DNA of 64,000 nucleotides, taken from the NCBI GenBank assembly GCA_963817525.1, contig CAWFOU010000007.1, positions 256,001-320,000 of the forward strand. Direction: 5' to 3'. This DNA is from an uncultured archaeon. Lineage in GTDB: Archaea; Thermoproteota; Nitrososphaeria; Nitrososphaerales; Gagatemarchaeaceae. The stretch's first letter is position 1; each line of letters begins with the position of its first letter. The notes below the pieces were generated by a model. It saw only the letters and a list, made by a program, of their open reading frames with translations, had not been told where the DNA came from and searched no databases. The position numbers were made by a program, and so were the translations under genes. Positions 30,060 to 58,061 of the stretch are shown piece by piece.

Positions 30060-31760
30060 TGACACGCCTAGCCGTATTTCCACAACCGCGCCCTCGGAAT
30101 GACGGCCATGCACCCTGTCCTTGATCATGACGCTTCCACCGTATCTTTCGACTACGAGGGCTCGGACGATTGAGAGTCCCAGCCCGCTTCCTACGGCGCT
30201 GTCGAGATACCTTCTGAATACCTTCTCCTTTAGCTCCTCGGGGACGCCGACTCCGCGGTCTGTCACGCTGATCTTCCAGTACTGCTGCTTCGGCGTGCTT
30301 GGGGCGCCTTCGCTCGCTCTGCCTTCCCCTTCAAATTTCTCCACTTTCACGTCGATGGAAACATCGGCACCCTGCGTATATCTTACGGAGTTTGAGAAGA
30401 TGTTAACGAAAACCTCGTCCAGCAGCTCGTCGCAGACTGTCTGAGCCTCCAAGTCGTCGGAGGAATACGAGAATTCTATGTGTCTCCCAGGGTTGGCATC
30501 CCTAACCAGAGCGAAGGACCTATCCAAGGAGTCCTTCAGGTTGATCGGACCAAGTTGCACGTTTTCTTCGAAGGTGATCTTGCCTAACTTCTTCGCCCGC
30601 TCGATCAGGGACGTGGAGCCATCGATGGCGCTCGTCATCATGTTGAGCAGTCTCTCCCTCTTTTCGCCGTCGTGTTCGACCGCCAGCAGTTCGCTGTTGA
30701 ACCTCATGATCTGGTTGAAGTTCCTGATGTCGTGCGTGAGGACATCCTGCAGCAGCTGCGCCTGCTTCCGGCTGCGTTTCTCCTTCTCCCGGAGCTCCGT
30801 CTCTCCCCAAAGCGCCTCGAAGACCGAGACGAGCCCGGCGATGGTGGGCTTGCTCGTGCTGTAGATGTTGGTCGAAACCGCCTGCTCCGTCGTCTCTGCC
30901 TCGGAATTCAAGTACTGCGTGATGAACATCCTGCGCCTGTCGTAAATCAAGATGCTCACGTTGATTGACTTGTCCATGTTACGCCAAGTGGCGCTCGGAA
31001 GGAGCTCGGTGACCGAGCCGACGACCGTCGGCGAAAGGATCCTGACAGGGAACCCTTTCCTTTCCTGCCTCTCGGCGAGCCTCCGGAACGACTCCTTGTT
31101 CCTCAAGATCGTCTTCTCCGACGCCAGGATCATCAACACCTCTTCGCTGCACTCCTCCGTCATTCTTTCTCCGAGCTCGTAGACCCTATACATGTCATCG
31201 ATGACCACGGTCGATTCAGGTTCGACTCCTAGCTCCAGTTGCCCGATTCTCGCGTCGGCGGGCGTCGCGCTCCTCCACATTACCTGGAAGATCTGGTCAG
31301 CCTGAGATATCACGTCCTGTCTGGTGCTCCAGACCACCTCTCTGGGGATGGGAGCCTTCGAGGACGCTTGCTCCTCAATGGCCGACAGAGGCGCAGCGAG
31401 GTATTCTTCCTTCGAGAGCGCGAAACTCACCTTGTTTCCCTCGATGTGCCTGACCTCGACGCCCGCCTCCATCACGGCCTTATAGTAGCCCACGTTTTCT
31501 TTTTGCAAATCTGCGGCCAGCTGGAATTTCAGGTCTGGGTTCCGCGCGAACATCTGCCGCGTGTAGGCTATCGCTGGTTCCATTTCCTTGGGGATCCTCC
31601 TGTCGGCGAGAGCAACCAGATAGGATGAAGCTACCGCCCTCTCGATGAAAGCATTGACCAGCGACTCCACATTCTTCTCGCCCTTGACTACCCTCGTCTC
31701 TCCTTCGAGTCGGGCGTCTGCGCTTCCCTTGCCGCTGAGCAGTTGGTCCAAGCTTTCCAC
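30060..31760 (-). CDS. Soluble sensor histidine kinase (3' end approximate; probable frameshift read-through into tdh)
   Basis: H-box LTHDIRN, N-box NIFSNSVRY, G-boxes DRGVGV and GSGLGLSIV; N-terminal TrmB/PLD-like repeats typical of thaumarchaeal kinases. Confidence 0.85.
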
Positions 31761-31806
31761 GATTGGGTTGGAAAGAAGCGCGGGTTCTGGCCATAAAAGC
31801 CGTTTT

Positions 31807-31819
31807 GGAACATTGTTCT
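31807..31819. promoter_or_regulatory. Palindromic motif GGAACATTGTTCT, 8 nt upstream of TATA-like TTTTAT (31798-31793) of the histidine kinase gene
   Basis: Perfect GAACA-T-TGTTC palindrome; spacing shared with other copies. Confidence 0.65.
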
Positions 31820-31854
31820 CATTTAGAAATCTATACTTGCAGCGCGCGAGCCTC

Positions 31855-33651
31855 TCACGTCGGTTCAATCTCGGGCTTGGGGAGATGCTCTGGTGGGGCG
31901 TGGTAGACGGGCTGCACGTCGTTCGGCAGATCGGCCTCGAAGAAATCAATCGTCGTCAGTCTGTCGACCAGCTTCAGCAGCCTCACGAACCTCCTGGGAA
32001 GGAACACAGAGCCAGAGGTCGAACGTATGGAGTAGCCGTCCCGAATCCTCAGCAGGAACATGGGCATGGCCACCGCCAACGGGACGACCGGGATGAGCGA
32101 CAGCAGCCAATCTCCCGGTGCCGGACCGATTACGCTGCCGACGTAGGAGCGGACGGGAGGGGCGAGCGTCGCCACAAAAAGCAGTAATGCGGCGGCGCAG
32201 CCTGCCGCGAGGATCTCCCAGGAGAACCTCCTGTGTCTGGTGATCCTCGAGATGTCCTCCAGGGGGACTGAGATAGTCTCCCCTCCATCGTGATCGTCCT
32301 TGACCAGGAGCCGCCGATTAGTGACGATCGCCTTCAGCTTCCCCGATACCATCGCTTCTAGAGCCTGCTCATCGCTAGCCATGCTGCGCCTGAGCCTCTC
32401 GTCGTCCGAGCGCTCCCTGGCCAAGGCCTCGAGGCGCTTCGCGAGGTTATGGGTCAGCCTTGCCATCGTGAGCGCCCCCGTGCTGTGGACGGCGTTCGTC
32501 CCGAGCCTCTTGCGAAGGGGCTCGTCGTCCACGAGCCTCAGCACCGCGTCCGCGGCCCCGAGGATGTCGTCTGGCCCTTGGAGGACCATCCCGTTTTCCC
32601 CGTCCTTGACCACCCACTGCTGTCCGCCCGCTCCTGAGCTCACGCACCGGGACCCCGTTGGACATGAACTCCAGCTGCGTTATGCCGAGAGCCTCTGAAC
32701 GGCTCAAGATCAGATTGATGGTGGTGGCCTTTATCAGCGCTGACTTTTCGGTTTCAGATATTGAGCCCAGGATGGAGACGTTCGGAAGCTCAGCCGCCCT
32801 CTCCCTCACCCTCCTTCCATATTGTCCTTGTTCTGTACCCGCGATGACGAAATGTATGTCCGTCCTCTGGACCAGTCGTCTCGCGACCTCCAAGACGTTG
32901 AGGGTGTTCTTCCGCTCCTCTACCGTCCCAAGAGATGTGACGAGCTTCGTCGCTGGGAGGATGCCTAGATTGGCGAACACTTCAGCAGGGTCGCCCATCG
33001 AGGCCTGTCAGCTCGTCGATTCCGCCAGGGAAGAGGAAGCACCTGTCCTCGGCCGCCCCCCTCTCCTTCATGGCCTCCTTCTCGAAGGGCGAGACGACCA
33101 GGACCAGGTCGGCCTCTCTCACTATCAGCGAGAGGCTGGTCTGGTTCCAGGCTTCCCTGAAGGACCTCTCGACGACTCCGTATCTATCTGGGCTCGCCTC
33201 CTGGAAGTGGCTCATGTGGCAGAATATCGGGGTCAGCTTGGGTACGCCGTCGCGCGACAGGTTTCTCCTCCACTCTACGAACTTTAGGATCTCCTCCGGG
33301 CCATTCCAGAGCGTCGAATGCGTGATTAGGACGTTGAGCTTGAAGTTGTCCACTATCTTGGCGAGCGTGTCTATGAAGTCGATGAGGGAGGCTCGCCTCG
33401 GCGGCCAGGAGGTCGGCGCGCTCCCCACCCTAATCACCGGTATCCCGAGGCTCTCGTCGAAGGTATAGACGTACCCCGCGTGCATGGCAAGCTCCTCGTC
33501 GGAGATCACCGGCTTCTCGTCCTGATACGGACTCGTGATAAGGAAGGCGTCGTAGTTCATGCGCCCTGAACTCCTTGACCATCCTCTGCGCCACGAGCTC
33601 TTGTCCCTTGGTGAGGCTGGTCTGATACATGACGACGCCGATTCTGAGCAA
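31855..33651 (-). CDS. GT4 glycosyltransferase with C-terminal PH-like/TM domain, paralogue of 54453..56234 (three frameshifts)
   Basis: MLRIGVVMYQTSLTKGQELVAQRMV start identical to the paralogue; SRSEALGITQLEFMSNGVP; pieces in ORFs 33430..33651, 32982..33830, 32447..32998 and 31855..32643. Confidence 0.85.
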
Positions 33652-34101
33652 TCGGACTCACTTCCCGAGGAGTCCTGGGAGGCCAACGGCGACCCACCTC
33701 CAGAGGGTGACGCCCTCCGGGGGCGCGATGAGAGGCGTCGGTAAGGACGACAAGCGTGGTCAGCGCCAAAAGCAGCCTGATCCGTCTGGCGTTGCATCTT
33801 GGGCCTGCAACAATTTTGCATGGAGCTCATTTGGGTTACGGTGATGAATGCCGAGAAGATTTGCGTGGCATTCTAGACTAACAATTCACCATGTGGTGAG
33901 CGGAAGGCGGCTGCCAACCAATGGGGCGGCTTGGTGAGCCCGACAGATACGACTCCGAGGGGTCCGGGTGCGCTACGCTGATTGGTCCCATCGGACGGCC
34001 GAGCGACATCACCGCCGGATAGTAGAATCCATCATGAGACCAAATCAGAAAACTTTGCGAACCCCTATTCAGGCAAACGCGCCAATGGGTTCCCGAGATT
34101 C

Positions 34102-34521
34102 ATGTACACATTTGGGTTCGCGATTCCGTCTACGGCTGAAGGGCTCATCATTCTCGCCATCACTCTGGTAGTGCTGTGGATTGTGGTGTCAGTCCCGGTC
34201 TTCATCGCCGGCGAACTGATGACCGATGGGAAGGCGGACTTTGGGATGGCGATGGGGGCAACCCTCGGCGGAGCCGTGATGTACGTCCTTGTGCTCTGGG
34301 CGGGGACTTTCATACTTTCGCCGGTCCTCGGCGCCTCGGCGCTGGCATTGTCCTTCGTCCTCGCACTGTTGGTGTGGCTGGCGGTGTATCGCGCCTCCTT
34401 CGAAACGGGTTGGCTGCAGGCAGTAGGCATAGTTGTTGTAAGCTGGCTCGTTCTGGTCGTGATGGACGTGATACTCATGTCGCTCTTCGGGGTCTCATTC
34501 CCGAAGTTCTACCCCTTCTAG
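34102..34521 (+). CDS. Hypothetical 4-TM membrane protein
   Basis: Four hydrophobic helices. Confidence 0.65.
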   Translation: MYTFGFAIPSTAEGLIILAITLVVLWIVVSVPVFIAGELMTDGKADFGMAMGATLGGAVMYVLVLWAGTFILSPVLGASALALSFVLALLVWLAVYRASFETGWLQAVGIVVVSWLVLVVMDVILMSLFGVSFPKFYPF

Positions 34522-34536
34522 GACAGACCACCGCGG

Positions 34537-35172
34537 TCAGGGCTGAGCGTTCAGGTTCAGGATCGCGTCGACCCTGAGCCTCGTGGACGGGTTGGTTCCG
34601 ACGCGCCCCCAAAAAGAGGTGCGCCGTTTCCTTTTCGAGTTCTGGAGCGACTCCGCGGCGCGGATGGCCTGGACGAGCGCCTCCCCGTCCACGAACGAGA
34701 CAGCGAGCTTGTCGCAGCTCATCTCGTGCCTGAGATAGCGCTCGGAGTCGACGGTCGTGAGTACCGCTATAGCGCCGACGAACGCGAGCACCAACGAGAA
34801 GATCAGAGGAACTGCTGAGCCGGTTCCCACGAACACCGCGAAAGCCAACAGCACCGAGACCACGACCGCGGGAGCCACGAGCCGCCTTCTCCTCTCTCCG
34901 CCGTCTCCCAATACGTGTCCGAACTCATGCGCAGCCACTGCGCGTCTTTGGCTGTCTGTCAGGCTCGAGTAGTAGCGCGCACCGAACAAGAGCTTGTTTC
35001 CGAAGCTGAGCGCTGCGACGTTGGTCTTCGTGAGAAAGTATCTCTCACCCGTGTCGCTGCTCAAGCGACCCGAGACGCTCATGCTCTCCGCCAATGAGTC
35101 CAGTTCCGAAGACTTGAAGGCGGTCGCTCCCAGGAAGACTCTAAGGTACAGGCCGCCGGCGTCCACGAACAA
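34537..35172 (-). CDS. M48/M56-like zinc metallopeptidase
   Basis: AVAAHEFGH (HExxH), two TM helices, HEMSCD third ligand, TNPSTRLR. Confidence 0.75.
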   Translation of the reverse strand: MFVDAGGLYLRVFLGATAFKSSELDSLAESMSVSGRLSSDTGERYFLTKTNVAALSFGNKLLFGARYYSSLTDSQRRAVAAHEFGHVLGDGGERRRRLVAPAVVVSVLLAFAVFVGTGSAVPLIFSLVLAFVGAIAVLTTVDSERYLRHEMSCDKLAVSFVDGEALVQAIRAAESLQNSKRKRRTSFWGRVGTNPSTRLRVDAILNLNAQP

Positions 35173-35295
35173 TCCCTACGGCAACGTGGCCGCAGCCCGT
35201 AGATTTAGGTTGCGGAGGGACCCTTCACAAGCACGCGGTGACGCACCTTCCCGCACGCGCACAATTGAGGGTGCTATCAGCCCTGTCTTTTCGGG

Positions 35296-35544
35296 TCAAA
35301 GGACCGGGGCGCGCGCAGCGGAAACCAGAGCCGGCTGGCCGGCGTCTGGAGGGACAGACGGCTTGCCTTGGGGGCTGTTCTGGCTATGCGCCCGGGCGTG
35401 CCTGCTCATATGGATGTAGCAATATGTCCCGTCGCATATGTGGCACGTGTAGTGATATCCCAGGTGGAACTTCCCGCCGCAAAAGCGGCATACGGGCTCG
35501 GCCTCCGCTCCCGTCTCCCTTGAGGCGTCGAGGGTCGTCACCAT
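35296..35544 (-). CDS. Small AN1-like zinc-finger protein
   Basis: CRFC...CHIC...CYIH...H..H pattern. Confidence 0.65.
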   Translation of the reverse strand: MVTTLDASRETGAEAEPVCRFCGGKFHLGYHYTCHICDGTYCYIHMSRHARAHSQNSPQGKPSVPPDAGQPALVSAARAPVL

Positions 35545-35671
35545 CCCCCCCTCAAATCGAAAGGACCGGTCTTTCTCTCGCGCATCACCAATTCCTCGCA
35601 GCGATCTGTCCGCGCGCTTCGCACGTCACCCAAGGACTAGCGGGTTATTCAAGGTCGACCACCTTTCTTAA

Positions 35672-35684
35672 AGAACAATCCATC
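35672..35684. promoter_or_regulatory. Half-conserved motif AGAACAATCCATC, 8 nt upstream of TATGAA (35693)
   Basis: Perfect left half-site, same spacing as the other copies. Confidence 0.4.
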
Positions 35685-35729
35685 ATTCAGGATATGAAGG
35701 CACGTCCGCTGTAAGCTCTGCGAGGCTTC

Positions 35730-36269
35730 TTGAGTAGTCAACCGGACGCGGAATCAGAGGTGGTTTGGCAAGCCCATCCATGGATAACGCCTGCGCTAGC
35801 AGGGCTCACGATAGAGGCGGTCGCGTTCGCGATCGTCCTCTCATGGGCCGAGTTCGCGGCGGGCGTGGCCGTCAAAGCCGTCGGCCCTGTCCCGTTGCTC
35901 GCGGCGACATACGGGCTGGTCTTCTTCCTATGGCTGGGCGGATCCTTCAGGCTGGCCCTGGTGCGTGCGTCCAGTCATTACACCCTCAGGGGGTCAAGCC
36001 TTGAAATCCAGCATGGAATCCTTAGTCGGAGGATTTTCACCGTGTCTGCCGCTGGCTTCTCCGACCTCCAAGTAGTCAAGAGCGTCTGGGGCAGAATCCT
36101 AAATACGGGGACCATCGTGATAGAGACCGACAGCGATAGGGACCTGAGGCTGAGGATGATTCACGATCCGATCAAGGTCTCGACCAAGTTAAGGCAGGTG
36201 ATGACGGTTCCTGTTGTAAGGGTCTCTGGCCAAGAACCCATACAAGCAACGAAGGGCAACGGAAAGTAG
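35730..36269 (+). CDS. Bacterial-type PH domain (bPH_2) membrane protein
   Basis: Two TM helices then YTLRGSSLEIQHGILSRR...SVWGRILNTGTIVIET. Confidence 0.8.
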   Translation: MSSQPDAESEVVWQAHPWITPALAGLTIEAVAFAIVLSWAEFAAGVAVKAVGPVPLLAATYGLVFFLWLGGSFRLALVRASSHYTLRGSSLEIQHGILSRRIFTVSAAGFSDLQVVKSVWGRILNTGTIVIETDSDRDLRLRMIHDPIKVSTKLRQVMTVPVVRVSGQEPIQATKGNGK

Positions 36270-36463
36270 CGCCGCACCCTACACCGAGCGGGGATGCCCT
36301 TGGTTCCGTCGCACGTCGCAGCCAGGCTGAGAATGGTCAAGAGTCGCTCCAAGTGAGCTGAAACTCGCACCAGTCAGTGGCCGTGGGTCGCCGCAGCAGG
36401 CGGAAGCAGCCTCGTCTCCAGCGCGTGGACGAGCCCCCGTGCGAATGGGGCGTCCATTTCAGT

Positions 36464-36856
36464 TCACGCAGACTCCTGTACTTTTGGCTTGATGCTCAGC
36501 CCGTTTATCTTCTGCACGAGTTCTCGTATCCCTATCGGCTTCTGGATGACCTCGCGAACGTTCAGCTTCGCGAAGAGTTTGTTGACCTCGTTCATCAGGT
36601 CCACAAAACCCGTGAGGAAGATCACCTGGACCCCATTGTCTCTCCTCTTCATTTCGTAGACCATCTCGAACCCGTTCATTCTCGGCATCTTGATGTCGCT
36701 GATTATGAGGTCGTAGGCGCCTGGCTTGAAAGCTGCCAGAGCCTTGATAGGGTCATAGAACACGTCCGCCGCGAACCCGTGACTCTTCAGCCCCGCCCCG
36801 AGAGCATTCGCGACGTCATGCTCGTCGTCCACGATTAGGATTCTTAGGAGTGGCAT
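36464..36856 (-). CDS. Stand-alone response regulator receiver
   Basis: ILIVDDE, DIKMPRMNG, FLTG and QKP motifs. Confidence 0.92.
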   Translation of the reverse strand: MPLLRILIVDDEHDVANALGAGLKSHGFAADVFYDPIKALAAFKPGAYDLIISDIKMPRMNGFEMVYEMKRRDNGVQVIFLTGFVDLMNEVNKLFAKLNVREVIQKPIGIRELVQKINGLSIKPKVQESA

Positions 36857-36893
36857 TCGAGTAGACCAATGAGTGATTACATATAGTCCTCAA

Positions 36894-36906
36894 GATACAT
36901 TGTTCC
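36894..36906. promoter_or_regulatory. Motif GATACATTGTTCC, 8 nt upstream of TATATG (36885-36880) of the receiver gene
   Basis: 10/13 match to the GGAACATTGTTCT copy at 31807; conserved spacing. Confidence 0.55.
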
Positions 36907-37165
36907 TGAGTGGGCAAGGCCATTGCGTTTCGCCTCACCAAAAATGTTTCATTCACGGACGGTAGTGGCGGAGCTAGCTTGCTCGGCTAAGATGCTTCAC
37001 TGCAGTAGCACGAGCTGGCTACCTGACCGCAGCCATTGCAAACGCGGAACGGGCCCTCCAAGTGAGTGAGTTTGCCGCATCTGCCGCAAATCCCGCTCAT
37101 CTGCAAGCTGGTCATCGGCTTTTGATATCGCAGCCATTCTTATTGTGATGCTTGAATGTTAAGGA

Positions 37166-37417
37166 ATGAACGGCGTCATCATGGTTATGGCACTTGCCTG
37201 TAGGAGGAACCGCGGAGCCCGCGAGACAGCTCTCGTAGCGACCAGGCACACGAATGATGGAAGGTTCCGTGATGTCTTCTCGAGGGCATGTCGTTCAGGC
37301 CAACCTTGCGAGTGTGATTCGCGGCTCGGAGCATCCTTTTGCAAAGAACACCATTCAGCAATTGTATTTCGCTCGCTAGAGCGCGTTCACGACCAGGGCC
37401 TGGCGTCTGACCGATGA
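37166..37417 (+). CDS. Small Cys/His-rich hypothetical protein
   Basis: C-x5-C-x-C...FCKEHH pattern; TTAAG box upstream. Confidence 0.4.
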   Translation: MNGVIMVMALACRRNRGARETALVATRHTNDGRFRDVFSRACRSGQPCECDSRLGASFCKEHHSAIVFRSLERVHDQGLASDR

Positions 37418-37421
37418 CCGG

Positions 37422-38537
37422 TCATGTCGTTGCTGTGCCTATCGCCGTCGTGGGCTTCGAATCGAGCGGGAGCGTGAACTCGAAGACCGCACCGCCGCTG
37501 CCGTATTCAGCTTTGTTCCTCGCGCTTATTTTTCCGCCGTGGGCCTCCACGATGCCCTTGGAGATGAAGAGCCCTAGCCCTGTCCCGCCTTGAGATCGTG
37601 CTCCGAACTTCGTGAAGAGCACCTTAAACATGTCTGGGTCGATTCCAGGTCCGTCGTCGCTGACTTGCAACACAGCCTCTGCTTCGACACGTTTGATTGA
37701 GACTACGACCTCACCTTTGGTCGTGAACTTTGTCGTGTTTTCCAGGAGGTTGGACAGAACCTGGGCGATTCTCTCCCTATCTGCTGAGACGACTATCTCC
37801 TGGGCGGAAGGCTCGAACTTGAGGTCGGCCATTTTCGTTGCCTGCGTCTCGCGGACGATCTCCATGACGAAGAGGTTCAAATCGAACGTCTCCTTCCTCA
37901 AGGTGAGGGTCTTGCTGTCTATCCTCGCTACGTTGAGGATATTCTCGGCCAGGCGCTGAAGCCTTATCGCGTTGCGTTTGATCGCTTGGACCTCTTCGGA
38001 AGTTCCAATCGTGCTGGACTCCAAGATTTCCGCGTAGGCGAGAATCGGCATGATAGGCGTGCGCAGTTCGTGAGCCGCAACGTTGATGAACTCCGACTGC
38101 TGGATGAGCTGCTTTTGGGCAGAGATGATCAATTCCGAGACTGATGCCTTCTTCATCTTATCAGAGGTCGAGCCGCTGATGGCGGGGTCGGCGAGGGCCG
38201 CGAGGAGTCGCTGCTCATCGATCGTCTCCTCCCTCTGCATATTCAGCCAATCAGAGAGCGCCCCCAGACTTCGGCTGACCCTCACGTGCACGTCTCTTCG
38301 AACGGACTCCTGCCTGAGGCGTCTCCTTACAAGCTCATGCCGCTTCTGTAGGTCACGGACGGTATAATTGAGTGTCTGCGCGACCTCGAGGATGACCTTT
38401 TCCCTATCTTTCTTCGTCTTCTCGAAGGTAGAGACCGCTTGACTGCGGAACGCCTCTATGCGCCTTCTGGCGTCCTTCACCGAAGCCTCGTTGCGTATCC
38501 TGAACTCTTCGCGCGCGCGATCGATGTCTGTGCTCAT
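37422..38537 (-). CDS. Soluble histidine kinase, last gene of the gvp operon
   Basis: AAHELRTP, NLLENTTKFT, DDGPGI and GTGLGLFISKGIVEAHGG; ATGA overlap with the gvpH stop. Confidence 0.92.
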   Translation of the reverse strand: MSTDIDRAREEFRIRNEASVKDARRRIEAFRSQAVSTFEKTKKDREKVILEVAQTLNYTVRDLQKRHELVRRRLRQESVRRDVHVRVSRSLGALSDWLNMQREETIDEQRLLAALADPAISGSTSDKMKKASVSELIISAQKQLIQQSEFINVAAHELRTPIMPILAYAEILESSTIGTSEEVQAIKRNAIRLQRLAENILNVARIDSKTLTLRKETFDLNLFVMEIVRETQATKMADLKFEPSAQEIVVSADRERIAQVLSNLLENTTKFTTKGEVVVSIKRVEAEAVLQVSDDGPGIDPDMFKVLFTKFGARSQGGTGLGLFISKGIVEAHGGKISARNKAEYGSGGAVFEFTLPLDSKPTTAIGTATT

Positions 38538-38974: not shown

Positions 38975-39201
38975 CCCGCGGGGCCTCCCTTCGATAGCTT
39001 CCTGAGCTCTTCCAGAATCTCCCCCTGGCGCTTCCCGTACTCCTCCTGGTCGATGAGGCCTGTGCTGAAGTCGATGTCCAACTGTACGACCCTCGATTTT
39101 AGCCACCTTCCGCGCTCACTGTTCTCGGCCTCGTTTGCGATTCGGTTGCACTCTTCGACAATAGCTTGGAACGTGATTTTCAGGATGAGATAGGTGGCTA
39201 T
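38971..39201 (-). CDS. gvpG: GvpG-like gas vesicle protein (76 aa, apparent ATA start; absent from ORF track)
   Basis: Manual translation IATYLILKITFQAIVEECNRIANEAENSERGRWLKSRVVQLDIDFSTGLIDQEEYGKRQGEILEELRKL...*; SD-like GAGGTGA 9 nt upstream. Confidence 0.7.
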   Translation of the reverse strand: MATYLILKITFQAIVEECNRIANEAENSERGRWLKSRVVQLDIDFSTGLIDQEEYGKRQGEILEELRKLSKGGPAG

Positions 39202-50143: not shown

Positions 50144-50158
50144 ATATAGTGAAATCTG

Positions 50159-50551: not shown

Positions 50552-50702
50552 GACGACTCGCCCTGGCACTCCGCCGATTGGGCCCCGGACTAGCGCGGCG
50601 TTCTGAGGCCGATGAAGGTTTCGTGCTTCTACTAGTGATTGATGTTAGGGAGTCGTGACCGCACTTGATTATAGCTTCGAGGCATACATTCTCCGAACGA
50701 AC

Positions 50703-51113
50703 ATGATCGGAGACAAGACTATTCGGTACGAAGGAAGGAACACCGACCTGGACTCACTGAGGGTCGGAATAGCCAACTACCTGCAGGGAGATGGCTTCAA
50801 AGTGCAGCTCCCGAAAGCGTCAGGTGCGGGGTGGCTCATCCAGGCCCAAAAGGGAGGGTTCCTGCGGGAGATCATTACGGCTGAGCGCGCGCTCAACATC
50901 ATGATACAGGGCGAGCCCAACAGCTTCAGCGTGCGAATAGGGGTAGGCAAGTGGGTCCAGAACGTGGCCGTGACAGCGGTGGAGACGATCGCCCTCTCCG
51001 AGCTCTTTCTTCCGCTCGACGTGGCAGAGATGGCGTGGACCCTGAACGTCGAGGACAAAGTCATCAAGAAGATCGACGAGCTCGTCCAATCGAACCCAGT
51101 CCCTGCGCGCTAG
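50703..51113 (+). CDS. Conserved hypothetical protein
   Basis: Clean ORF with TTATAG box upstream. Confidence 0.65.
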   Translation: MIGDKTIRYEGRNTDLDSLRVGIANYLQGDGFKVQLPKASGAGWLIQAQKGGFLREIITAERALNIMIQGEPNSFSVRIGVGKWVQNVAVTAVETIALSELFLPLDVAEMAWTLNVEDKVIKKIDELVQSNPVPAR

Positions 51114-51228
51114 GCAGCCTAGCGCCGGGGGCCCTATGTCGACCGCGCGGCCTACGATTTAGTCGTAATCGTAATCTCTCAGGTCGAAGGTTGCCCCTTC
51201 AGACGTCTAGCAGGCAGCGCGCCTGGAC

Positions 51229-51480
51229 TCAGGCCGCGGAGCCCTTCTTGAAGTGTTTGACCTTCCCGAAATCCCCGACATCGACGCCGAACCTCTTGGC
51301 CGCGGCGAGTATCCTGCGCCGCGCAGCCTCGGGGTGGCACTCGTTGGTTATAACCTGGTCGAAGCGAGCCATCGCGTTCCTGACGTGCGCCGCGTCGTTG
51401 ATCGGCAGCTTCCTGTCCACAGGGCAGGCAAATTGCGATGAGGAAAGACTCTCCCTCCTCTCCGTGTCTAGCTTGGCCAT
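51229..51480 (-). CDS. DUF6582-like small protein
   Basis: LSSSQFA.P..RKLPINDAAHVRNAMARFDQV...ARRRILAAAKRFGV. Confidence 0.8.
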   Translation of the reverse strand: MAKLDTERRESLSSSQFACPVDRKLPINDAAHVRNAMARFDQVITNECHPEAARRRILAAAKRFGVDVGDFGKVKHFKKGSAA

Positions 51481-51517
51481 GTTGGTGGGAATTCCCGGTC
51501 CCGTTTAAATAACGAAG

Positions 51518-51530
51518 TGAATATTGTTCT
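51518..51530. promoter_or_regulatory. Motif TGAATATTGTTCT, 8 nt upstream of TTTAAA (51509-51504)
   Basis: 11/13 match; conserved spacing. Confidence 0.6.
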
Positions 51531-51661
51531 TTAGGACCGGCCCGGACACGACTGCTCGCACCTGACTCGACACGGCGAGAATTCCATAGGATATCGGTAC
51601 GGAAAATTCACTTGAAGCGTAGTAAGGATTCGAATTTAAGGCTGTAATCGATTCCGTCGAT

Positions 51662-52177
51662 ATGGCACAGCAAACTCAAAGCAGCCCCCGTGGCGACACG
51701 GGGGAGTCGAACGAGTACAGGACACAGCAGGTCGTCGAAGGCACCGTCATGAGGATAACCGGTGCAGGGAATCTGGTCGTCTACCCCTCTAGCTCATCCG
51801 GCGACATAAATGTGGGGAACCCAGTCAGGATCGTGGTCGCAGAAAATGCGATCCGCGCCGTGATCTACCTGGAAGCGCGAGAGGACCCTATCTCTATTCC
51901 AATCGCCAGCACTTGGGCGATAATCGCCTCCGGTCCTGACAGCATTGAGAGATGCCAGGTCTTCTACAACGGCGTCCAGCTGAAGACGATCGACCACATG
52001 GGCCAGCTCAGATCCGAGGTGCGGATGCCTCGCGCCGGTTCGCTCTCCTACCGCATCCCTGCGCCCATGGAGCTGAACCCCGACTACATCGTCCAAGTGA
52101 GAGACGGCGACCGGGTGCTGAGAGAAGAGGCCCTCGGGTCGATGCACAGTACGCCGGCGTCTCCGCCCAAAGCCTGA
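51662..52177 (+). CDS. Hypothetical beta-rich protein
   Basis: 171-aa ORF with TTTAAG box about 25 nt upstream. Confidence 0.6.
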   Translation: MAQQTQSSPRGDTGESNEYRTQQVVEGTVMRITGAGNLVVYPSSSSGDINVGNPVRIVVAENAIRAVIYLEAREDPISIPIASTWAIIASGPDSIERCQVFYNGVQLKTIDHMGQLRSEVRMPRAGSLSYRIPAPMELNPDYIVQVRDGDRVLREEALGSMHSTPASPPKA

Positions 52178-52270
52178 TCCATTGAACCCTCCCGGAAAGG
52201 GCCGAGAGGGTCTCCCCGATTTTCTAATCGCAAAGTCGCATCGTCGGATGTAATTCGCCCGGATGAAATA

Positions 52271-52534
52271 TCAAGAGCCGACGACCCTAAAGTTGCAGTT
52301 GAAGTTGTAACCCTTCGAGGTCGGTGACGTCGATCCGACGCCAAGGAAGGTGGAGGTCGAGCCCGCGTTGGCGTAGGCGCCGCAGTGAAAGAGCGCGAAG
52401 GTCAGCGACACGTCTGCCTTGACGGTGGTGTTGCCGATGCCGTAAAACCACGACGAGGATTGGGAATAGGGGAAGATGGGCAGGAATATCGCGACGACTA
52501 TGACGACGCAGGCGACTATTGCTAGGCTGGACAA
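52271..52534 (-). CDS. Hypothetical small secreted or membrane protein
   Basis: Hydrophobic N-terminus, two Cys in the mature part. Confidence 0.5.
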   Translation of the reverse strand: MSSLAIVACVVIVVAIFLPIFPYSQSSSWFYGIGNTTVKADVSLTFALFHCGAYANAGSTSTFLGVGSTSPTSKGYNFNCNFRVVGS

Positions 52535-52707
52535 ACCGGTTATATTCTCTGGCTTGGTTGAAATGAGTTTGCAACAATCTTACACCGCTTTTTTACAAGG
52601 ACGGTATGCCATTGCAACGAGTCGGATGCGGTCCTTGGAGACGATGCCTAGGCTTGCCCCGCCCCGCACTTATTTTTGATCAGCGAAGGCTGCAGGCGCG
52701 ACCTGCG

Positions 52708-52962
52708 TCAGCCCTTCTCGACTACTACCTTGTCCATTATGATCTTGGCTACCGTGTAAGACCATAGCAATCGTTTATCTTTCATCCCCTTCATGTCGAT
52801 TCTCCTCCCGAATCGGAACGTAACGTGCCTGTCTCCTTCGCGCAGATTGATTCCGTATCCGCGAATGAGGTTGGCAAAAGTCTCCCATGCTCTAACGTGA
52901 ACGGAGTACTCGTAATCGACTCGCTCATCGTTAGCCGGGGACGACTCACCAATTGATTCCAT
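52708..52962 (-). CDS. Hypothetical protein
   Basis: ATG preceded by SD-like GGAGG and a promoter with the palindromic motif. Confidence 0.5.
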   Translation of the reverse strand: MESIGESSPANDERVDYEYSVHVRAWETFANLIRGYGINLREGDRHVTFRFGRRIDMKGMKDKRLLWSYTVAKIIMDKVVVEKG

Positions 52963-53013
52963 TATTCCTCCGCTTCAATAGAGTTTTCACCAGTTTCGGA
53001 TAAATAAACTCTA

Positions 53014-53026
53014 AGAACAATGTTAT
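53014..53026. promoter_or_regulatory. Motif AGAACAATGTTAT, about 9 nt upstream of TTTATC (53004-52999)
   Basis: 12/13 match to the consensus. Confidence 0.6.
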
Positions 53027-53188
53027 AGCGCGCTGGTATGGATTCCGGATGAGGTCTCTATCGGCGGGTGTGCAGAGCAGGGCTCGCTGCCCAGACCTCA
53101 ACGCCTCATGCGCGCGATGACACCTTCAAAAGCAGAATCTTTCCGACCTGGGCCGATGGCTCTCGCCAAGCCCTCCCGATGAAGGCAC

Positions 53189-54199
53189 GTGGCATTCGAC
53201 CTCTCGATCTTCCTGTCGCTGGCCTTCCTCTTCGGGATAGCGGCCCAGTTCGGGGCTGCGGACGGGCAGGCCTTCCTGCGGGGGGTCATCGGTGTGCTCG
53301 CGGGGAGACTCGGGTTGATGTACGCGGTGGTGGCGGTCGCCGCCCTCTTCTCGCCGTTCGTCCTCAACGACGTGCTGGTCCTGATACTCACGCCGGTCCT
53401 CATCGCCTATTCCAAGGAGTCGAGCACGGACATCGCCCCGCTCCTTGTCGCGGAGATAACCTTCACCAACCTAGCCAGCGCCCTCACGCCTCTCGGCAAC
53501 CCGCAGAACATCCTACTCTGGCAGGCCTCGGGGATCTCTGCGGGCGGTTTCGTGGCGGGGACCTGGCCTCAGCTCGCCATCGCGGGAGTGATCGGGGTCG
53601 TGCTGCTATACCCGTTCAGGACTAGGGTCGCCCGGCAGGGCAGTGTCACGCTCGCCTCCGGTTCGTGGTCGGCGGCTGCCTACCTCGCCGGGACGGTCGC
53701 AATAGTGTTCGTCCTGAACTTTTTTGGGGTCTCTAGCGTCGTGGCGCTGGGGACGGCGTTCGCGTTCGGCTTTGCGTTCACGTTCAGGACCCCGCGGAGG
53801 CTCGCCAGAGAGTACGACCTGAGGAGCCTGATAACGCTCTGCGTCGTGGTCGGCGCGGTGGCGGTCGTCGCGGCACTCGTCGAGCCCCTCCTCGTCCCCT
53901 ACGTGGCCCCGGTCGCCGAGGGGACGCAGCCCTACACCGCGGGCTTCTTCGGGCTGGTCTCAGCCTCTATAAGCAACGTGCCCGCGACCCAGCTCGTCCT
54001 CAGTACGACCACCGTGACCCCCCACGCCGTCCCAATCCTGGCGGTCGACGCCGGGCTCGCGGGCAACATCGACCCGATATCGTCTTTCGCGAACCTCCTG
54101 GCGCTGACGATGGTGAAGAGGAGCGGCCTTCCCATCCGGAGGACGATAATCCTTCAACTGGCGATAGGGCTAGTGGTGTTCCTGCCTGCCTTGCTGTGA
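53189..54199 (+). CDS. ArsB/NhaD/CitMHS-type ion transporter
   Basis: SPFVLND, NLASALTPLGNPQN, ISNVPA and AGNIDPISSFANL motifs. Confidence 0.85.
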   Translation: MAFDLSIFLSLAFLFGIAAQFGAADGQAFLRGVIGVLAGRLGLMYAVVAVAALFSPFVLNDVLVLILTPVLIAYSKESSTDIAPLLVAEITFTNLASALTPLGNPQNILLWQASGISAGGFVAGTWPQLAIAGVIGVVLLYPFRTRVARQGSVTLASGSWSAAAYLAGTVAIVFVLNFFGVSSVVALGTAFAFGFAFTFRTPRRLAREYDLRSLITLCVVVGAVAVVAALVEPLLVPYVAPVAEGTQPYTAGFFGLVSASISNVPATQLVLSTTTVTPHAVPILAVDAGLAGNIDPISSFANLLALTMVKRSGLPIRRTIILQLAIGLVVFLPALL

Positions 54200-54452
54200 C
54201 CTTGGACGGGTGCCTAGAAGAGCGCCTGGCTTGGACTCGCGCCTCTTCGAGAGGACCCACGCGAAGAAAATCGCGCGAAACCACCTCGGCGCGTCCTCCT
54301 TCGGGACATTGAAACTTATCTAGAAGTTGACTACGTTGCTTGGCCTGACGCCGAACCTTATACCTACGCCGGCCCTCGACGAGGGCGAGCCGGCCGGCCC
54401 CTCCCGGTAGCAATTTACTCCTTTCGAAGAACCCGAGCGCGCGGTTCGCGGG

Positions 54453-56234
54453 TCAGGCCCGGGGAGCCGCGGCGGCTTCGGCGTCCACGCCGGTGAGCTC
54501 GTTAGGTGTGAGCTTTTCCGCCAGCCTGAGAGCCTTTGCGAACTTGGAAGGAAGGAAGAGCTTCCGGGACGACCCGTAGTGCACCACGTATCCGTTTCTC
54601 ACGGAGGACAGAAAAGCCGCAGCCGCCACCACCGCGGGCACGAACGGCAACATCGCGGTGAGCAACCCGACCGCGCCCGGGAACCCGATGGACAAGAGCG
54701 CGGAAGAGAGGACGGGAGTGAGAGGCTTTAGCAACCCAACGCCCAGGGCCCCCTGCGCGACGAGGAGGCCCGTCGCAAGCGCCCCGAGGGCGAGCGTTCC
54801 CCAGGGGGCCTCTGCGTGCCTTTCGATGCTCGAGATGTCGTCGTACTTAATCGTCGTCACCTTGGTCCCGCTCTTGGCCGACCTGACGATAAGGCGCTTT
54901 GAGGTCGCCGCCACCTTCCTGCCCTTGTGCACCCAGGCCTCTATTATCCGCTCGTCTCCAGGCATGCCGTTGAGGGAGGAGAGGTCGTCGACCGACGCTC
55001 GGACCTCCTGCTCGAGACGCGTCGAGAGGGTGTCGACCAATCGTGGGAGGGAGTAGGGCGAGGCTGTCCGCGTCGCGACCTGCCCCAGCTTCCGTCTCAG
55101 CTTGGGACTGTCGGCCAGCCTCTTGATGGCGGCCGCCGCCCCGCTGGCGTCCTCGGGGCCGTTAAGGACTATCCCGTTGGCGCCGTTGCCGACGATCCAG
55201 GACTGACCCCCGACCCCGGACGTGATCACGGGGACTCCCGCCGACATGAACTCGAGTTGGGCGATGCCGAGGGCCTCAGACCTGCTCATCGTTATGTTTG
55301 CCAGGGAGGTCCTGATGAGGGCGGCCTTCTCCTCTTCCGTTATCGAGCCGAGCACCGAGACGTTCGGGAGCTTGCTCGCAGCGTCCTTGAGGGCGTCGGC
55401 GTACTCGCCGTCCGCCCTGCCTGCTATGACGATGCGAATGTCCTTCCTGTCCTCCAGTAGCTTGGCGACTTCGAGGAGCTCGAGCGGGTTCTTCCTCTCC
55501 TCGACCGTTCCCAAGAAGGAGATAAGCTTCGCATGTGGCGGAAGCCAGTGCTTTACCCGGAATTCCTCCTCTCCGCCCAGAGAAGCTATGTCTTCGTCGT
55601 CTATGCCGCCCGGAAAGAGGAAGATCTTCTCGTCCTTAGCGCCCAACCCCTTCATGAAGTTCGCCTCTTGGGGGGTCGTCACCAGGATGAGGTTCGCTGC
55701 CGCTATGACCTGCGGCAGGATGACATTGTTCCAGGCTTCTCTGTACGACCTCTCCACGATGGCGTACCTCTCGTCGTTGGGTTCTTGGAAGTGGCTCATG
55801 TGGCAGAAGATCAGAGGGGAGCGTGGGGCGCCGCCCTGTGCCATCTTCCTTCTCCAGGCCACGAACTTCACGACCTCCTCGGGGCCGTTCCAGAGGGTCG
55901 AATGGGTGATGAGGACGTTGAGCTTCAAGTCGTCGACGATGGTAGTCAGGACGCCGACGAAGTCGGTGAAGGATATCCGCCTGGGAGGCCAGGTCGTGTT
56001 GTCGCTGTTCACCCTGATAACGGGGATCCCCATGTCCCTGTCGAACATGTGGGCATAGCCTCCCCTCTTCTTCACCTCGTCCGGGCTGACAACCTGCTCC
56101 GAGTCCCGGAATACGCTCGTTATCAGGAACGCGTCGTGCCCCTGTCTGCAGAACTCCCTGACCATCCTCTGGGCCACAAGCTCCTGCCCTTTGGTGAGGC
56201 TGGTCTGATACATTACGACGCCAATTCTAAGCAA
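54453..56234 (-). CDS. GT4 glycosyltransferase with C-terminal PH-like/TM domain
   Basis: GTVEERKN and SRSEALGIAQLEFMSAGVPV (E-x7-E) motifs; C-terminal beta domain with two TM helices. Confidence 0.88.
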   Translation of the reverse strand: MLRIGVVMYQTSLTKGQELVAQRMVREFCRQGHDAFLITSVFRDSEQVVSPDEVKKRGGYAHMFDRDMGIPVIRVNSDNTTWPPRRISFTDFVGVLTTIVDDLKLNVLITHSTLWNGPEEVVKFVAWRRKMAQGGAPRSPLIFCHMSHFQEPNDERYAIVERSYREAWNNVILPQVIAAANLILVTTPQEANFMKGLGAKDEKIFLFPGGIDDEDIASLGGEEEFRVKHWLPPHAKLISFLGTVEERKNPLELLEVAKLLEDRKDIRIVIAGRADGEYADALKDAASKLPNVSVLGSITEEEKAALIRTSLANITMSRSEALGIAQLEFMSAGVPVITSGVGGQSWIVGNGANGIVLNGPEDASGAAAAIKRLADSPKLRRKLGQVATRTASPYSLPRLVDTLSTRLEQEVRASVDDLSSLNGMPGDERIIEAWVHKGRKVAATSKRLIVRSAKSGTKVTTIKYDDISSIERHAEAPWGTLALGALATGLLVAQGALGVGLLKPLTPVLSSALLSIGFPGAVGLLTAMLPFVPAVVAAAAFLSSVRNGYVVHYGSSRKLFLPSKFAKALRLAEKLTPNELTGVDAEAAAAPRA

Positions 56235-56388
56235 ATTTCAAATTACCCCGGATTTTCGTTGAGGATCCTCCAATTCGCTTCGCGTCATGGCAGGACGAAG
56301 AATATGGGCCGTCTTTCTATAAAAACCCCAGTGCAAGAATTCTACAGAAGAATTCTCTATCTTGAAATTCTGAGCACGCGAGCTTCGC

Positions 56389-57132
56389 TCATCTGCGGAC
56401 CAGCCTGCGAAGATCCAACGAAAGGCTGTCGTCACTGAGCGAGCGCAAGAAAGGGCCTAGTTCCTCGGGTTTCAGAGAATATCGGCAAGCGACGCCCTCG
56501 AGGCTCTGGCCGTGGTCGACGCAGATCGCCAGGTCGGCCTCTTCGAAGGCCGAGTTGTCCGATGTCGAATCCCCGAGGAACAAGACGCTGCCCGCCACCC
56601 CCAGGAGCCCCCTCAGCTCCCGGACGGCTCTTCCCTTGTCAGGCCTGCCCCCGAAGACGTCGAGATAGGGTCGAGCCTGGTCGCGGACCACCGTCAGCCC
56701 CATGTCCGTCAGGTCGGCAGTGGCGGTCGCGATGAACTTGGCGGGGGGCGGCGACGTAGCCCTCCAATCCACAGAGAAAGCGAGGAGCTCTCTGCCGGTG
56801 CTCCGCTTGAGCTCCAGAGTCAGGCCAAAGTCGTTGTGGCGCTTCACGTAATTCAACCCCTCACGGAGCCTGCTTGCCATCCGAGAGGTAGCGAACGCTC
56901 TGCCGTCGGAGAGGACGATCTCGAGACCCGAGACGCAGGCCCACGCCCGTGCGAAAGGGGCCCTCGAACGGACGAAGCCGTAGTCCTTAGACGTCACTAT
57001 CGCGACCGGAACCGAGTCGCTCAAATCGCGCAAGGGTCCTTCTATCTCTTCCGGCACGCGTGAAGCTTCGAGGCTGACGTCGTCAGGCGCCAGGGTGCCG
57101 TCGTAGTCAGTGAAGACCGCGCTGATCTTCAA
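56389..57132 (-). CDS. HAD-IIB phosphatase (trehalose-phosphatase-like)
   Basis: TDYDGTLAP, IVTSK, DKGRAV and LGDSTSDNSAF motifs. Confidence 0.82.
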   Translation of the reverse strand: MKISAVFTDYDGTLAPDDVSLEASRVPEEIEGPLRDLSDSVPVAIVTSKDYGFVRSRAPFARAWACVSGLEIVLSDGRAFATSRMASRLREGLNYVKRHNDFGLTLELKRSTGRELLAFSVDWRATSPPPAKFIATATADLTDMGLTVVRDQARPYLDVFGGRPDKGRAVRELRGLLGVAGSVLFLGDSTSDNSAFEEADLAICVDHGQSLEGVACRYSLKPEELGPFLRSLSDDSLSLDLRRLVRR

Positions 57133-57137
57133 GGCGC

Positions 57138-58061
57138 TCAGGAGGTCTTCACGGTCGGATTGGCCTGCTCGGCCGCCTTCGATTCCTCTTCCTCTTCCAA
57201 CTCCCTGTGCAGCCTTATGAGGCGGGTCAGAATCTCAGACTTTAGGAGCGCGTGGTCCTTCTCCTTCGCGTTCAGCACCGCCTTGACAATGTAGTACTCC
57301 TTGTCGCTCTGTTCGTTTACAACGAGGCTGACGATCGGGAATTCTCGAATGTCCTCCTTGATCCTGAAGAGGACCATCTCCGGGTCAAATCGGTTGGAAA
57401 ACTCGTACCGCACGTTGAAGAAGTAGTCATCCTGCGTGTAGGACAGAACCGCGGCGTCCGTTGCTAGGATCGAGTTGGGGATCTTCATCATCTGACCCTC
57501 CTCGGTGAGGATCTTCGTGAAGAACAGCCCAACCTCCTTCACCTCCCCCATGTACCCGGCATAGACCGAGTCGGGTGAGAAGTACTTGTAGCCGGGGAGG
57601 AAAGCCCACTGGAAAGGTATGTGCCAGCTGAGGATCCGCACTTGGCTCCCCGGCCTCACGGCCCCCGAAGTGAGGATGAGTATCCCCGCGAAGAAGCTCC
57701 CCAGCGTCGGCTGCAGGGCGAGTCCGAGGACGATCCCGCTGATGGCCGCGCCCGCGAGCAGCGCTGTCGGGGAGAATGAGAGGTAGGACGCCGAGGCGAC
57801 CACGGCAATGATGTATCCGAAGACGGCGACGGCGTTGCTGAAGACGAGGGCGTTCTTGCCGAGCTCTGACCTGAACTCGGCGGCGATGGTCCGAGACGCG
57901 TCCCTCGCCAGGAGGACGCCCCCCGCAAGAATCAGTCCGGCGTATGCAAATCTGAAATTCTCCGTGTACCCGGCGATCGCCCTGCTGAGGTAGAAGACGA
58001 CCACCAAGGCCACTGCTAGGATGGCTATGTCGGTAAGGAGCCTCTTGAAAGTGGGTCTCAA
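57138..58061 (-). CDS. mscS: MscS family mechanosensitive channel
   Basis: GIVLGLALQPTLGSFFAGILIL...PG..V...GEVKEVGLFFT...IPNS. Confidence 0.88.
   Translation of the reverse strand: MRPTFKRLLTDIAILAVALVVVFYLSRAIAGYTENFRFAYAGLILAGGVLLARDASRTIAAEFRSELGKNALVFSNAVAVFGYIIAVVASASYLSFSPTALLAGAAISGIVLGLALQPTLGSFFAGILILTSGAVRPGSQVRILSWHIPFQWAFLPGYKYFSPDSVYAGYMGEVKEVGLFFTKILTEEGQMMKIPNSILATDAAVLSYTQDDYFFNVRYEFSNRFDPEMVLFRIKEDIREFPIVSLVVNEQSDKEYYIVKAVLNAKEKDHALLKSEILTRLIRLHRELEEEEESKAAEQANPTVKTS

Follow-up and report, generated by a model that had tools for sequence, protein, structure and literature searches.

The window analysed here is a 64,000-nucleotide stretch from an uncultured archaeon of the Gagatemarchaeaceae (order Nitrososphaerales; assembly GCA_963817525.1, contig CAWFOU010000007.1), corresponding to C7:256001-320000 of a genome that is 95% complete and 8.75% contaminated. 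Within it lies an insert of ~23 kb that combines a gas-vesicle (gvp) operon with a set of regulators, namely two histidine kinases (HK1, HK2), two stand-alone receivers (REC1, REC2), two Sso10a-type winged helix-turn-helix (wHTH) proteins (HTH1, HTH2), a KaiC/GvpD-like P-loop ATPase and a divergent transcription factor B (TFB*). Comparison with relatives identifies the insert as a trimmed copy of a module that is conserved across four Nitrososphaerales families, ammonia oxidisers included, and whose fuller copies also carry a Pel-like polysaccharide cluster. C1-C7 denote contigs of the source genome, G and L numbers are handles for genomes and loci of relatives, and f1-f5 denote families. Gene identities rest on a Pfam search of the proteins encoded in the block 30060..58061 unless another basis is stated. 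They agree with the inventory in a preliminary description of this DNA, which had listed a TFB, two wHTH regulators, two kinases, two receivers, a GvpD-like ATPase, gvp genes, WbqC, GlmS, GtrA, MscS, HAD, DUF1328 and DUF6582; the six small Cys/His-rich proteins counted there are five CxxC proteins plus DUF6582. Both reported family 4 glycosyltransferases (GT4) are present, but the first is broken into three frameshifted pieces and duplicates the second, which suggests decay or an assembly error.

The block had been described as a single unit of ~28 kb. Its left edge holds (~30012), but the insert ends at ~53190, because six relatives without the module join the flanks there. In these six members of the genus the gene ending at ~30011 directly adjoins the CitMHS gene at ~53190, GT4-HAD(-MscS) follows the joined flanks in five of them, and a blastn alignment with G033 ends at 30011 and restarts at 53195; a right boundary at 58061 is ruled out by this empty site. 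In G015 and G031 the module adjoins the same backbone genes as in the window. The backbone GT4 (54453-56213) occurs in 12 of 23 genomes of the genus, seven of which have no gvp, PelF or TFB* match, whereas G021, in which GT4-HAD-MscS adjoins the module, argues against a clean split of backbone and module. The reported dip in GC is real but mild and unremarkable on sliding GC and tetranucleotide profiles: the 28-kb block has a GC of 0.581 against 0.609 on average (10% of the 1270 windows of 28 kb reach so low a value) and the insert one of 0.573 (8% of 1288 windows), third-position GC is as low in 5.5% of windows, and tetranucleotides are as deviant in 16-17% of 365 windows. Spacers are indeed longer, with a median of 115 nt in the block and 76 nt genome-wide, a comparison of hand-curated with automatic gene lists. 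As previously described, no integrase, transposase or att site was seen, and a tRNA scan, Pfam and a repeat comparison revealed no tRNA or terminal repeat at the block. A recent horizontal or integrative mobile island was rejected on these grounds together with the unremarkable composition; the empty site itself fits loss as well as gain.

The gene order shared by G015, G031 and G063 runs HK2-gvpH-G-F/L-K-J-ZnF-A, then HTH1-PIG-L-WbqC-TFB*-HTH2, then ~10 kb of further genes, and finally (GlmS)-ATPase-receiver. The ~10 kb that are gone from the window copy encode spherulin-4, an ATP-grasp protein, a PelG-like protein, an epimerase, PelF (DUF3492+GT4) and a TPR protein; PIG-L is missing as well, its orphaned promoter being retained. 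The block is not self-contained, as had been proposed, since the main effector in relatives, the Pel-like cluster, is deleted from it. The idea of regulatory genes inherited together, with a TFB and a phosphorelay of their own, fared better, being borne out by synteny across families, the empty site and the box shared by promoters. The source genome contains a second copy (C7:941-957 kb), 640 kb away; it has PIG-L, found only there, and the Pel-like genes and no gvp genes, and its TFB and GlmS are 71% and 84% identical to those in the window; matrix and gas-vesicle outputs are split between the two copies. The surroundings of this second copy (C7:931000-973000, L016-L018) include two more KaiC/GvpD-like ATPases, three further HTH_45 genes, Lrp-like genes, a dCache kinase with the third receiver of the genome, CsbD, DUF5670, a DUF883-like gene and an ice-binding-like domain. 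Genome-wide, there are three receiver domains (two of them in the block), eight whole TFB genes and 25 HTH_45 matches. In reduced loci of G094 (L030), G055 (L031) and G042 (L032), HTH1-TFB*-HTH2 persist together with ATPase, receiver and kinase, although Pel and gvp genes are few or absent; the regulatory core can outlive its effectors.

Pel-like and gvp genes are joined in the ammonia-oxidiser genomes G162, G300 and G319 (f2) and G252 (f5), and held apart in f4 genomes. In the cultured Ca. Nitrosotalea devanaterra (L082), 20 kb contain PelG-epimerase-PelF-TPR, GlmS, ATPase, kinase, receiver, spherulin-4 and the gvp operon. Scanning GTDB genomes with the ZnF gene, a marker of this operon type, yielded 40 loci, some of which overlap other genomes examined; by title, 38 belong to Thaumarchaeota/Nitrososphaerota taxa, one to an 'uncultured archaeon' and one to 'Thermoproteota', and none is bacterial. 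One of the two named loci nearest to the window copy belongs to isolate palsa_1368, a member of the Gagatemarchaeaceae (PMC10640624), which makes Group I.1c the likely lineage. All 40 contain gvpA, J, K and F/L; where the upstream sequence reaches 5 kb or more (27 loci), other module genes occur in 24. Among 401 genomes of the class, 22 have both the gvp operon and PelF, one the operon only, six PelF only and 372 neither, i.e., PelF accompanies the ZnF-type operon in 22 of 23 cases; the corresponding counts for genus g24 are 11, 1, 0 and 20. These counts omit weak partial DUF3492 matches in G302, G468 and G484 and one in G091, and the gvp genes of G011 are of another type. The co-occurrence holds even where the two gene sets lie 30-90 kb apart (G212, G262). 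Within the family, PelF and TFB* are present in 8/8 genomes with the operon and TFB* in 14/15 with PelF, while 4/18 genomes with TFB* have no PelF match. We consider it very likely that the module is real, conserved and probably co-regulated.

Table 1. Features of the insert and its right flank, in window coordinates.
Feature	Position	Strand	Remarks
Insert (against relatives without the module)	30012..53190, ~23 kb		Flanks joined in G017, G020, G022, G023:C15, G030, G033
HK1, soluble histidine kinase, accessory	30060..31760	-	HATPase_c; likely GTG start at 31760; box upstream at 31820
Frameshifted GT4 duplicate, accessory	31855..33630	-	Three pieces, 34-55% identical to GT4 54453-56213
Five small CxxC proteins	at 35296, 36987, 40690, 42849, 48491		
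REC1, stand-alone receiver	36464..36856	-	PF00072; equivalent position in G031
37-aa CxxC protein between HK2 and REC1	36987..37100	-	DNA conserved in G015, G031
HK2, histidine kinase closing the gvp operon	37422..38537	-	HisKA+HATPase; start overlaps gvpH stop
GvpH-like, Hsp20 fold	38534..38974	-	HSP20/Hsp20 matches below cut-off; position conserved
GvpG-like	38971..39210	-	G063 orthologue PF05120 at 22.6 bits, below cut-off; position conserved
GvpF/L	39216..39951	-	PF06386, 3e-49; one-base frameshift near 5' end in assembly
GvpK fused to gas-vesicle domain	39948..40436	-	PF05121 + PF00741
GvpJ/M-like	40437..40700	-	PF00741; best NCBIfam match GvpJ, below cut-off
ZnF, zinc-finger-type protein, marker of operon type	40690..40938	-	No known family
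GvpA shell protein	40960..41190	-	E 1.7e-17 to gas vesicle structural protein 8GBS; box at 41265
DUF1328, accessory	41375..41545	-	PF07043; adjoins module in G023 too
GtrA-like membrane protein, accessory	41783..42442	+	PF04138; near module in G023 and near second copy
C2H2 small protein	42849..43049	-	PF00096; in module loci of G015, G031, G023, G025, G021 and second copy
HTH1, Sso10a-type wHTH	43653..43979	-	PF14947; PIG-L partner deleted, PIG-L promoter box left at 44214
WbqC-like	44212..44976	-	PF08889, 6e-65
TFB*, divergent TFB	45008..45961	-	Altered recognition helix and B-reader region
HTH2, Sso10a-type wHTH	46149..46439	-	PF14947; E 8e-10 to Sso10a 1R7J; box at 46492; candidate box-binding activator
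Deletion scar, 163 nt	46492..46655		Pel-like genes fill 9.4 kb at this point in G031 and 10.7 kb in G015 (blastn)
GlmS paralogue of the module, putative hexosamine supply	46657..48414	+	Separate GlmS on C1, 41% identical
Small Cys protein between GlmS and ATPase	48491..48685	+	Position conserved out to Nitrosotalea loci
KaiC/GvpD-like P-loop ATPase, predicted REC2 partner	48782..50143	+	PF07088, PF06745
REC2, stand-alone receiver	50159..50551	+	PF00072; D55, T83, K107 invariant in 26 orthologues
DUF6582, accessory	51229..51480	-	Box at 51531; not found in syntenic loci of G015, G031, G063
84-aa protein of unknown family, accessory	52708..52962	-	Box at 53027; G015 homologues carry box too
CitMHS, GT4, HAD, MscS	53189..58061		Chromosomal backbone, outside module; GC 0.621 (53190-58061)

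The module is patchily distributed within the family (gvp in 9/97 and PelF in 15/97 genomes), several genomes have two copies, the gvp operon stands apart from the Pel genes in G021, G039-G041 and the f4 genomes, and the PelF tree leaves its deep branches unresolved and does not recover f1 as one group. Such a pattern could arise at a hotspot or mobile island that collects cassettes each useful by itself, moved as a group but not under common control. We regard this explanation as improbable: beyond the missing integrase, tRNA and terminal repeats, module GC stays within 0.02 of the flanks in eight genomes spanning GC 0.36-0.60, the TFB* tree splits f1 from f2, and gvp and Pel-side genes have the same box in front of them across families. 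Old inheritance with losses fits, because module GC follows that of the host and the TFB* tree separates these two families.

The glycosyltransferase of the polysaccharide cluster qualifies as PelF, the G015 protein scoring 123 bits against the NCBIfam model NF038011 (cut-off 100); PelF of the second copy has the same DUF3492+GT4 composition, and the window copy has none. For the adjacent PelG-like protein, Pfam PelG recognises 8 of 16 members (best value 5e-13; the first member stays below the cut-off), distant homologues score 45-55 bits (cut-off 29), and the predicted fold is that of a MOP transporter, with a predicted local distance difference test (pLDDT) value of 83; searches against plasmids and PDB sequences gave no match. 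A 200-aa SNAP/TPR-like gene, a possible counterpart of the membrane-anchored TPR protein PelE, precedes pelF, and spherulin-4 and PIG-L are present in place of a PelA-type hydrolase/deacetylase. Spherulin-4 matches 5C5G/5D6T at E 4e-14, structures that we take to be Aspergillus Sph3. A lone spherulin-4 gene far from both copies (C1:167583) has a weaker box (7.6 bits) in front of it and is possibly a distant member of the regulon. The Aspergillus galactosaminogalactan cluster (Sph3, Uge3 and Agd3) likewise brings a spherulin-4 hydrolase together with an epimerase and a deacetylase, whereas the archaeal synthase is PelF/PelG-like and not of the fungal type. The Gram-positive pelDEA(DA)FG loci, as in Bacillus cereus, resemble the archaeal cluster in their PelF GT4, adjacent PelG-like MOP transporter and TPR, epimerase, hydrolase and deacetylase genes (PMC7112168, PMC7890745), and in their available parts these papers do not mention archaea. 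The archaeal cluster differs in that no PelD or PelA-type gene was detected, spherulin-4 and PIG-L acting as putative stand-ins, in that the module adds WbqC, ATP-grasp and GlmS, in that control appears to be transcriptional, and in that the window copy has lost the Pel genes altogether. A search of full-text literature covering few subscription papers, with the supplements of PMC4836417 and PMC7554672 outside its scope, returned no description of an archaeal Pel-like cluster or of its link to gvp genes. Among other Thermoproteota families, 3/301 genomes (G534, G737 and G562; L128-L130) have PelF-PelG beside several KaiC-like ATPases, two of them with a Roadblock gene, which suggests a wider archaeal Pel-KaiC link.

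The gas-vesicle set consists of GvpA, which keeps the shell-protein pattern, an A-like J/M protein, GvpK, GvpG (with a match below cut-off) and a single F/L gene. The initial 16 codons of GvpF/L lie in a different frame from the remainder, while the gene is intact in G015 and G031; an assembly error is plausible, because backbone genes in the window likewise end out of frame. Such frame breaks at gene ends occur at 12572-13399, 27031-28332 and 39216-39951 of the window, with many alike in long contigs of G030 and G031, which suggests indel errors in these assemblies. The ZnF protein has seven invariant Cys in 10 orthologues; its derivation from GvpC or a longer protein was rejected on the weak evidence that no longer homologue and no family were found. 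Haloarchaeal gvp clusters with GvpD/GvpE share GvpA, J, K, F/L, G and H-like proteins, a GvpD-type P-loop ATPase and an activation site adjacent to the B recognition element (BRE) (PMC9501494). In contrast to these, the archaeal operon described here has no detected GvpC, N, O, E or I, adds the ZnF gene and a kinase, pairs the ATPase with a receiver and is tied to a matrix cluster; for GvpE, there was no match among the block genes, and no genome-wide search was made. Serratia sp. ATCC 39006 also has regulators inside its gas-vesicle locus (gvrA/B/C), where they are needed for gvpA expression, but relies on sigma-54/NtrC logic and has gvpN and gvpC, instead of TFB, wHTH and KaiC-like ATPase as here (PMC4982088). 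Gas-vesicle genes are known from N. gargensis (PMC3835317), and 'gas vacuoles' of N. devanaterra are mentioned in passing (PMC4836417). A different type of gvp cluster in G011 (L007:1998-12763) is interrupted by transposase-like genes and includes, by eye, GvpO-like and ArsA-like open reading frames.

TFB* scores 169 bits against the canonical-TFB model (cut-off 384) while keeping the Zn ribbon and two cyclin repeats; its recognition helix reads T[TP]IT[IL]R[KR]R (TTITLRRR in the window) against TEVTVRNRY in 1D3U, and the B-reader region has diverged. In a tree of 43 TFB rows, built after removal of 12 loci (duplicates or own-genome) and of TFB matches that are <230 aa long or contain a stop, 30 form the TFB* clade (support 100/99); 28 of these have module genes within 7 kb, and the remaining two lie on contigs <6 kb. 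In Nitrosopumilaceae and f4 loci (L039:12270-13202, L044:5083-6018), the module TFB is followed by a metallophosphoesterase gene, possibly an off-switch. Many module promoters carry a box, TAGAACAAT, upstream of the TATA box. It is found with at most two mismatches in 46 of 58 gvpA and PIG-L promoters of relatives, in 44 of these at 12-14 nt from TATA, and before both gvp and Pel-side genes across families. With a matrix trained without the source genome and thresholds of our own choosing, the source genome has 14 sites at 9 bits, six of them in the block (0.14 expected), whereas wrong-spacing controls place 1/5 and 1/6 there and the density of TATA-like sequences in the block is raised only 1.3-fold. 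The six sites precede HK1, gvpA, the former PIG-L, HTH2, DUF6582 and the 52708 gene; two are orthologous to training promoters, and four lie before genes outside the training set. At 5 bits the block holds 7 of 69 sites (permuted matrices 0-4). HTH2-like promoters carry the box in 33 of 59 cases (5.5 when shuffled, 14 with wrong spacing). In the genome of the N. devanaterra locus, a strict pattern gives eight distinct sites, seven of them within 44 kb, against none for the backwards control. A looser matrix gives 1-17 sites inside and 0-1 outside seven modules, whose bounds were drawn by us and, for G162, after the sites had been seen. The arrangement resembles that of TFB-RF1 of Pyrococcus furiosus, where a semi-palindromic site precedes a weak BRE and TATA box by a constant spacing, but the TFB-RF1 site, TCTG-N5-CAGA, is different and that protein recruits an ordinary TFB (PMC5937170).

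The distribution of the box also bears on a further explanation, an archaeal regulon for general stress or dormancy whose many protective outputs would include matrix and vesicles. The box does stand before DUF6582, HK1 and the unknown small gene at 52708, DUF1328, CsbD, DUF5670 and DUF883-like genes, from families of bacterial general-stress regulons, lie near module copies, and GT4-HAD-MscS adjoins the module in G021 as in the window. These stress-type genes, however, fall outside the core common to the families, the module is absent from most relatives, and the regulon appears small, because only 14 strong box sites exist genome-wide. We therefore hold a general-stress regulon to be unlikely. 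The stress or dormancy island of the preliminary description is unsupported as drawn, because the osmotic genes on which it rested (MscS, HAD, GT4) belong to the backbone, where they have no box; what survives is some stress flavour in small accessory genes: DUF6582 with its box, DUF1328 found again beside the module in G023, and CsbD/DUF5670 near the second copy.

Upstream of transcription, structural modelling supports binding of REC2 to the KaiC/GvpD-like ATPase. The predicted complex scores 0.70 against 0.00 for the best of three controls, with at least 95% of contacts agreeing between runs and partner pLDDT of at least 84; among reference pairs, 116 of 157 solved ones and 2 of 215 mismatched ones attained that mark, counts that are only rough for these alignments. 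Predicted contacts involve ATPase residues 112-125 and 149-161 and, in REC2, residues 56-64 and 83-98; most of these do not vary among 26 orthologues, and they lie next to D55 and T83. Since the ATPase has distant KaiC proteins as relatives in the PDB, the model may recall a like complex. Archaeal REC-only regulators and KaiC-like ATPase hubs offer the same parts, i.e., stand-alone receivers, soluble kinases and a KaiC-family ATPase, and KaiC-REC fusions exist in Methanosarcinaceae (PMC5847659); in contrast to the regulators described there, REC2 sits in a conserved gene neighbourhood and comes with a predicted partner and a candidate output. HK1 homologues adjoin the module in G015 and G063. 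HK2 closes the operon in 37 of 40 ZnF loci, kinase-domain-only matches included. Its N-terminus is predicted as a ~100-residue helix (3-102; pLDDT 45-85) of no known family, its first 140 residues were matched only in 18 proteins of the same architecture, and a fold search returned kinase cores only, the model of residues 80-141 being poor.

Drawing on gene order, co-occurrence, the module-tied TFB clade and a conserved box just upstream of BRE/TATA in gvpA, PIG-L and HTH2 promoters, we favour, with somewhat better than even confidence, a switchable, phosphorelay-gated programme of matrix and gas vesicles for an aggregated, interface-dwelling (pellicle-like) state. The soluble kinases are predicted to phosphorylate the stand-alone receivers, and REC2 to bind the ATPase. 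The ATPase may gate an activator, by analogy with haloarchaeal GvpD gating GvpE (PMC9501494). This activator would most likely be HTH2, binding the box, amplifying its own expression and, by analogy with TFB-RF1 (PMC5937170), recruiting TFB* to promoters with non-standard BREs. GlmS, epimerase, PelF/PelG, PIG-L and spherulin-4 could make and trim a partly deacetylated polymer of the GalNAc type, while GvpA/J/K/F-L/G would build small gas-filled shells, with HK2 providing feedback. More tentatively, and with considerable doubt, the module could represent an old developmental switch of the Nitrososphaerales, cultured acid-soil ammonia oxidisers included, which runs from kinase via receiver, KaiC-like ATPase and Sso10a-type activator to a dedicated TFB; a Pel-type matrix and gas vesicles made without GvpN would both be turned on, and one kinase would read the vesicle itself.

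Several observations weigh against the pellicle programme. The co-occurrence counts come from related genomes that are not independent, and they are inflated by physical linkage. Four module-adjacent TFBs (f4, f5) are not members of the TFB* clade. Promoters of GlmS (1/18), ATPase (2/31) and ATP-grasp (2/15) show no enrichment of the box, which is mostly missing from TPR and receiver promoters and weak before TFB* (8/27; wrong spacing 5). In the second copy the matrix finds nothing at 9 bits and two sites at 7; strict sites are missing from G031 and G486, G262 has four but all beyond its module, and the backwards control in G212 gives three. Naming HTH2 as the protein that binds the box is a guess; Sso10a is classed as a chromatin protein. 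On the matrix side, no PelD was found in annotated loci or, with a silent positive control, by PF16963 in 0/5 genomes, nor a PelA-type GH114 hydrolase by PF03537 (0/5 genomes; control detected in 3/14); the cluster may work like Pel, yet we do not file it as Pel because PelD and GH114 were not found in these five genomes. Predicted carbohydrate genes of three other ammonia-oxidising archaea were not induced in glass-surface biofilms (PMC12448741). An annotation-word search for gas-vesicle and Pel-type genes in dataset S2 on N. viennensis (PMC12448741), which depends on the annotation, gave one unrelated label. Buoyancy is the weakest link and uncertain, because GvpN (TIGR02640, 0/5 genomes above cut-off) and GvpO (PF05800, 0/5 genomes with a silent control; none in the operon) were not found and gvpC is not in the operon, no genome-wide GvpC search having been made. 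The conserved gvp set comprises gvpA, C, F, G, K, L and N, and gvpN mutants make only tiny vesicles (PMC9501494); no vesicles have been observed for the S. coelicolor cluster, also without gvpN (PMC4982088).

The reduced Gvp set, together with the S. coelicolor precedent, could also mean that the same single regulon forms no buoyant vesicles, its tiny bicones or scaffold being read by HK2 as a sensor of gas, turgor or drying that times the matrix. The position of HK2 at the operon end in most loci, and its long helix in place of a known sensor with an N-terminus confined to proteins of one architecture, would suit such a role. Against it, GvpA keeps its shell pattern, and the genes essential in Serratia (A, F, G, K and A-like; PMC4982088) have counterparts among the assembly genes that remain. 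We find a non-buoyant sensor quite unlikely. Four rhizosphere RNA runs from one study gave thin contigs on module and flanking genes alike and are uninformative on induction, because both are covered alike.

If true, the developmental switch outlined above would amount to an archaeal floating-biofilm programme with a worked route from stand-alone receivers to transcription. The findings bear on the role of gas-vesicle genes in soil microbes, tied here to a matrix cluster and a promoter box. They also bear on how archaeal stand-alone receivers, which account for ~75% of thaumarchaeal regulators and mostly lack a conserved neighbourhood (PMC5847659), act on transcription, one of them having a predicted partner here. 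The third question is the function of the extra TFBs of ammonia-oxidising archaea, which are up-regulated in biofilms (PMC12448741); one clade of TFBs here has a fixed gene set. All three questions are testable, because a cultured strain carries the gvp-Pel part.

Some further observations concern the surroundings of the insert and the source assembly. Downstream of the block, 58206-59750 encodes a secreted protein, rich in Thr and Ser, that contains repeats of ~95 residues and lacks any Pfam match; it has ~39 tblastn matches in the genome, and its relatives adjoin or are fused to spherulin-4 genes in module loci. Identical stretches are shared between contigs (C1:501007 = C4:13341, C7:526899 = C2:11091), in line with the 8.75% contamination. 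Outside the block, two tandem universal-stress-protein-like genes were recognised by eye at 9744-10839 of the window.

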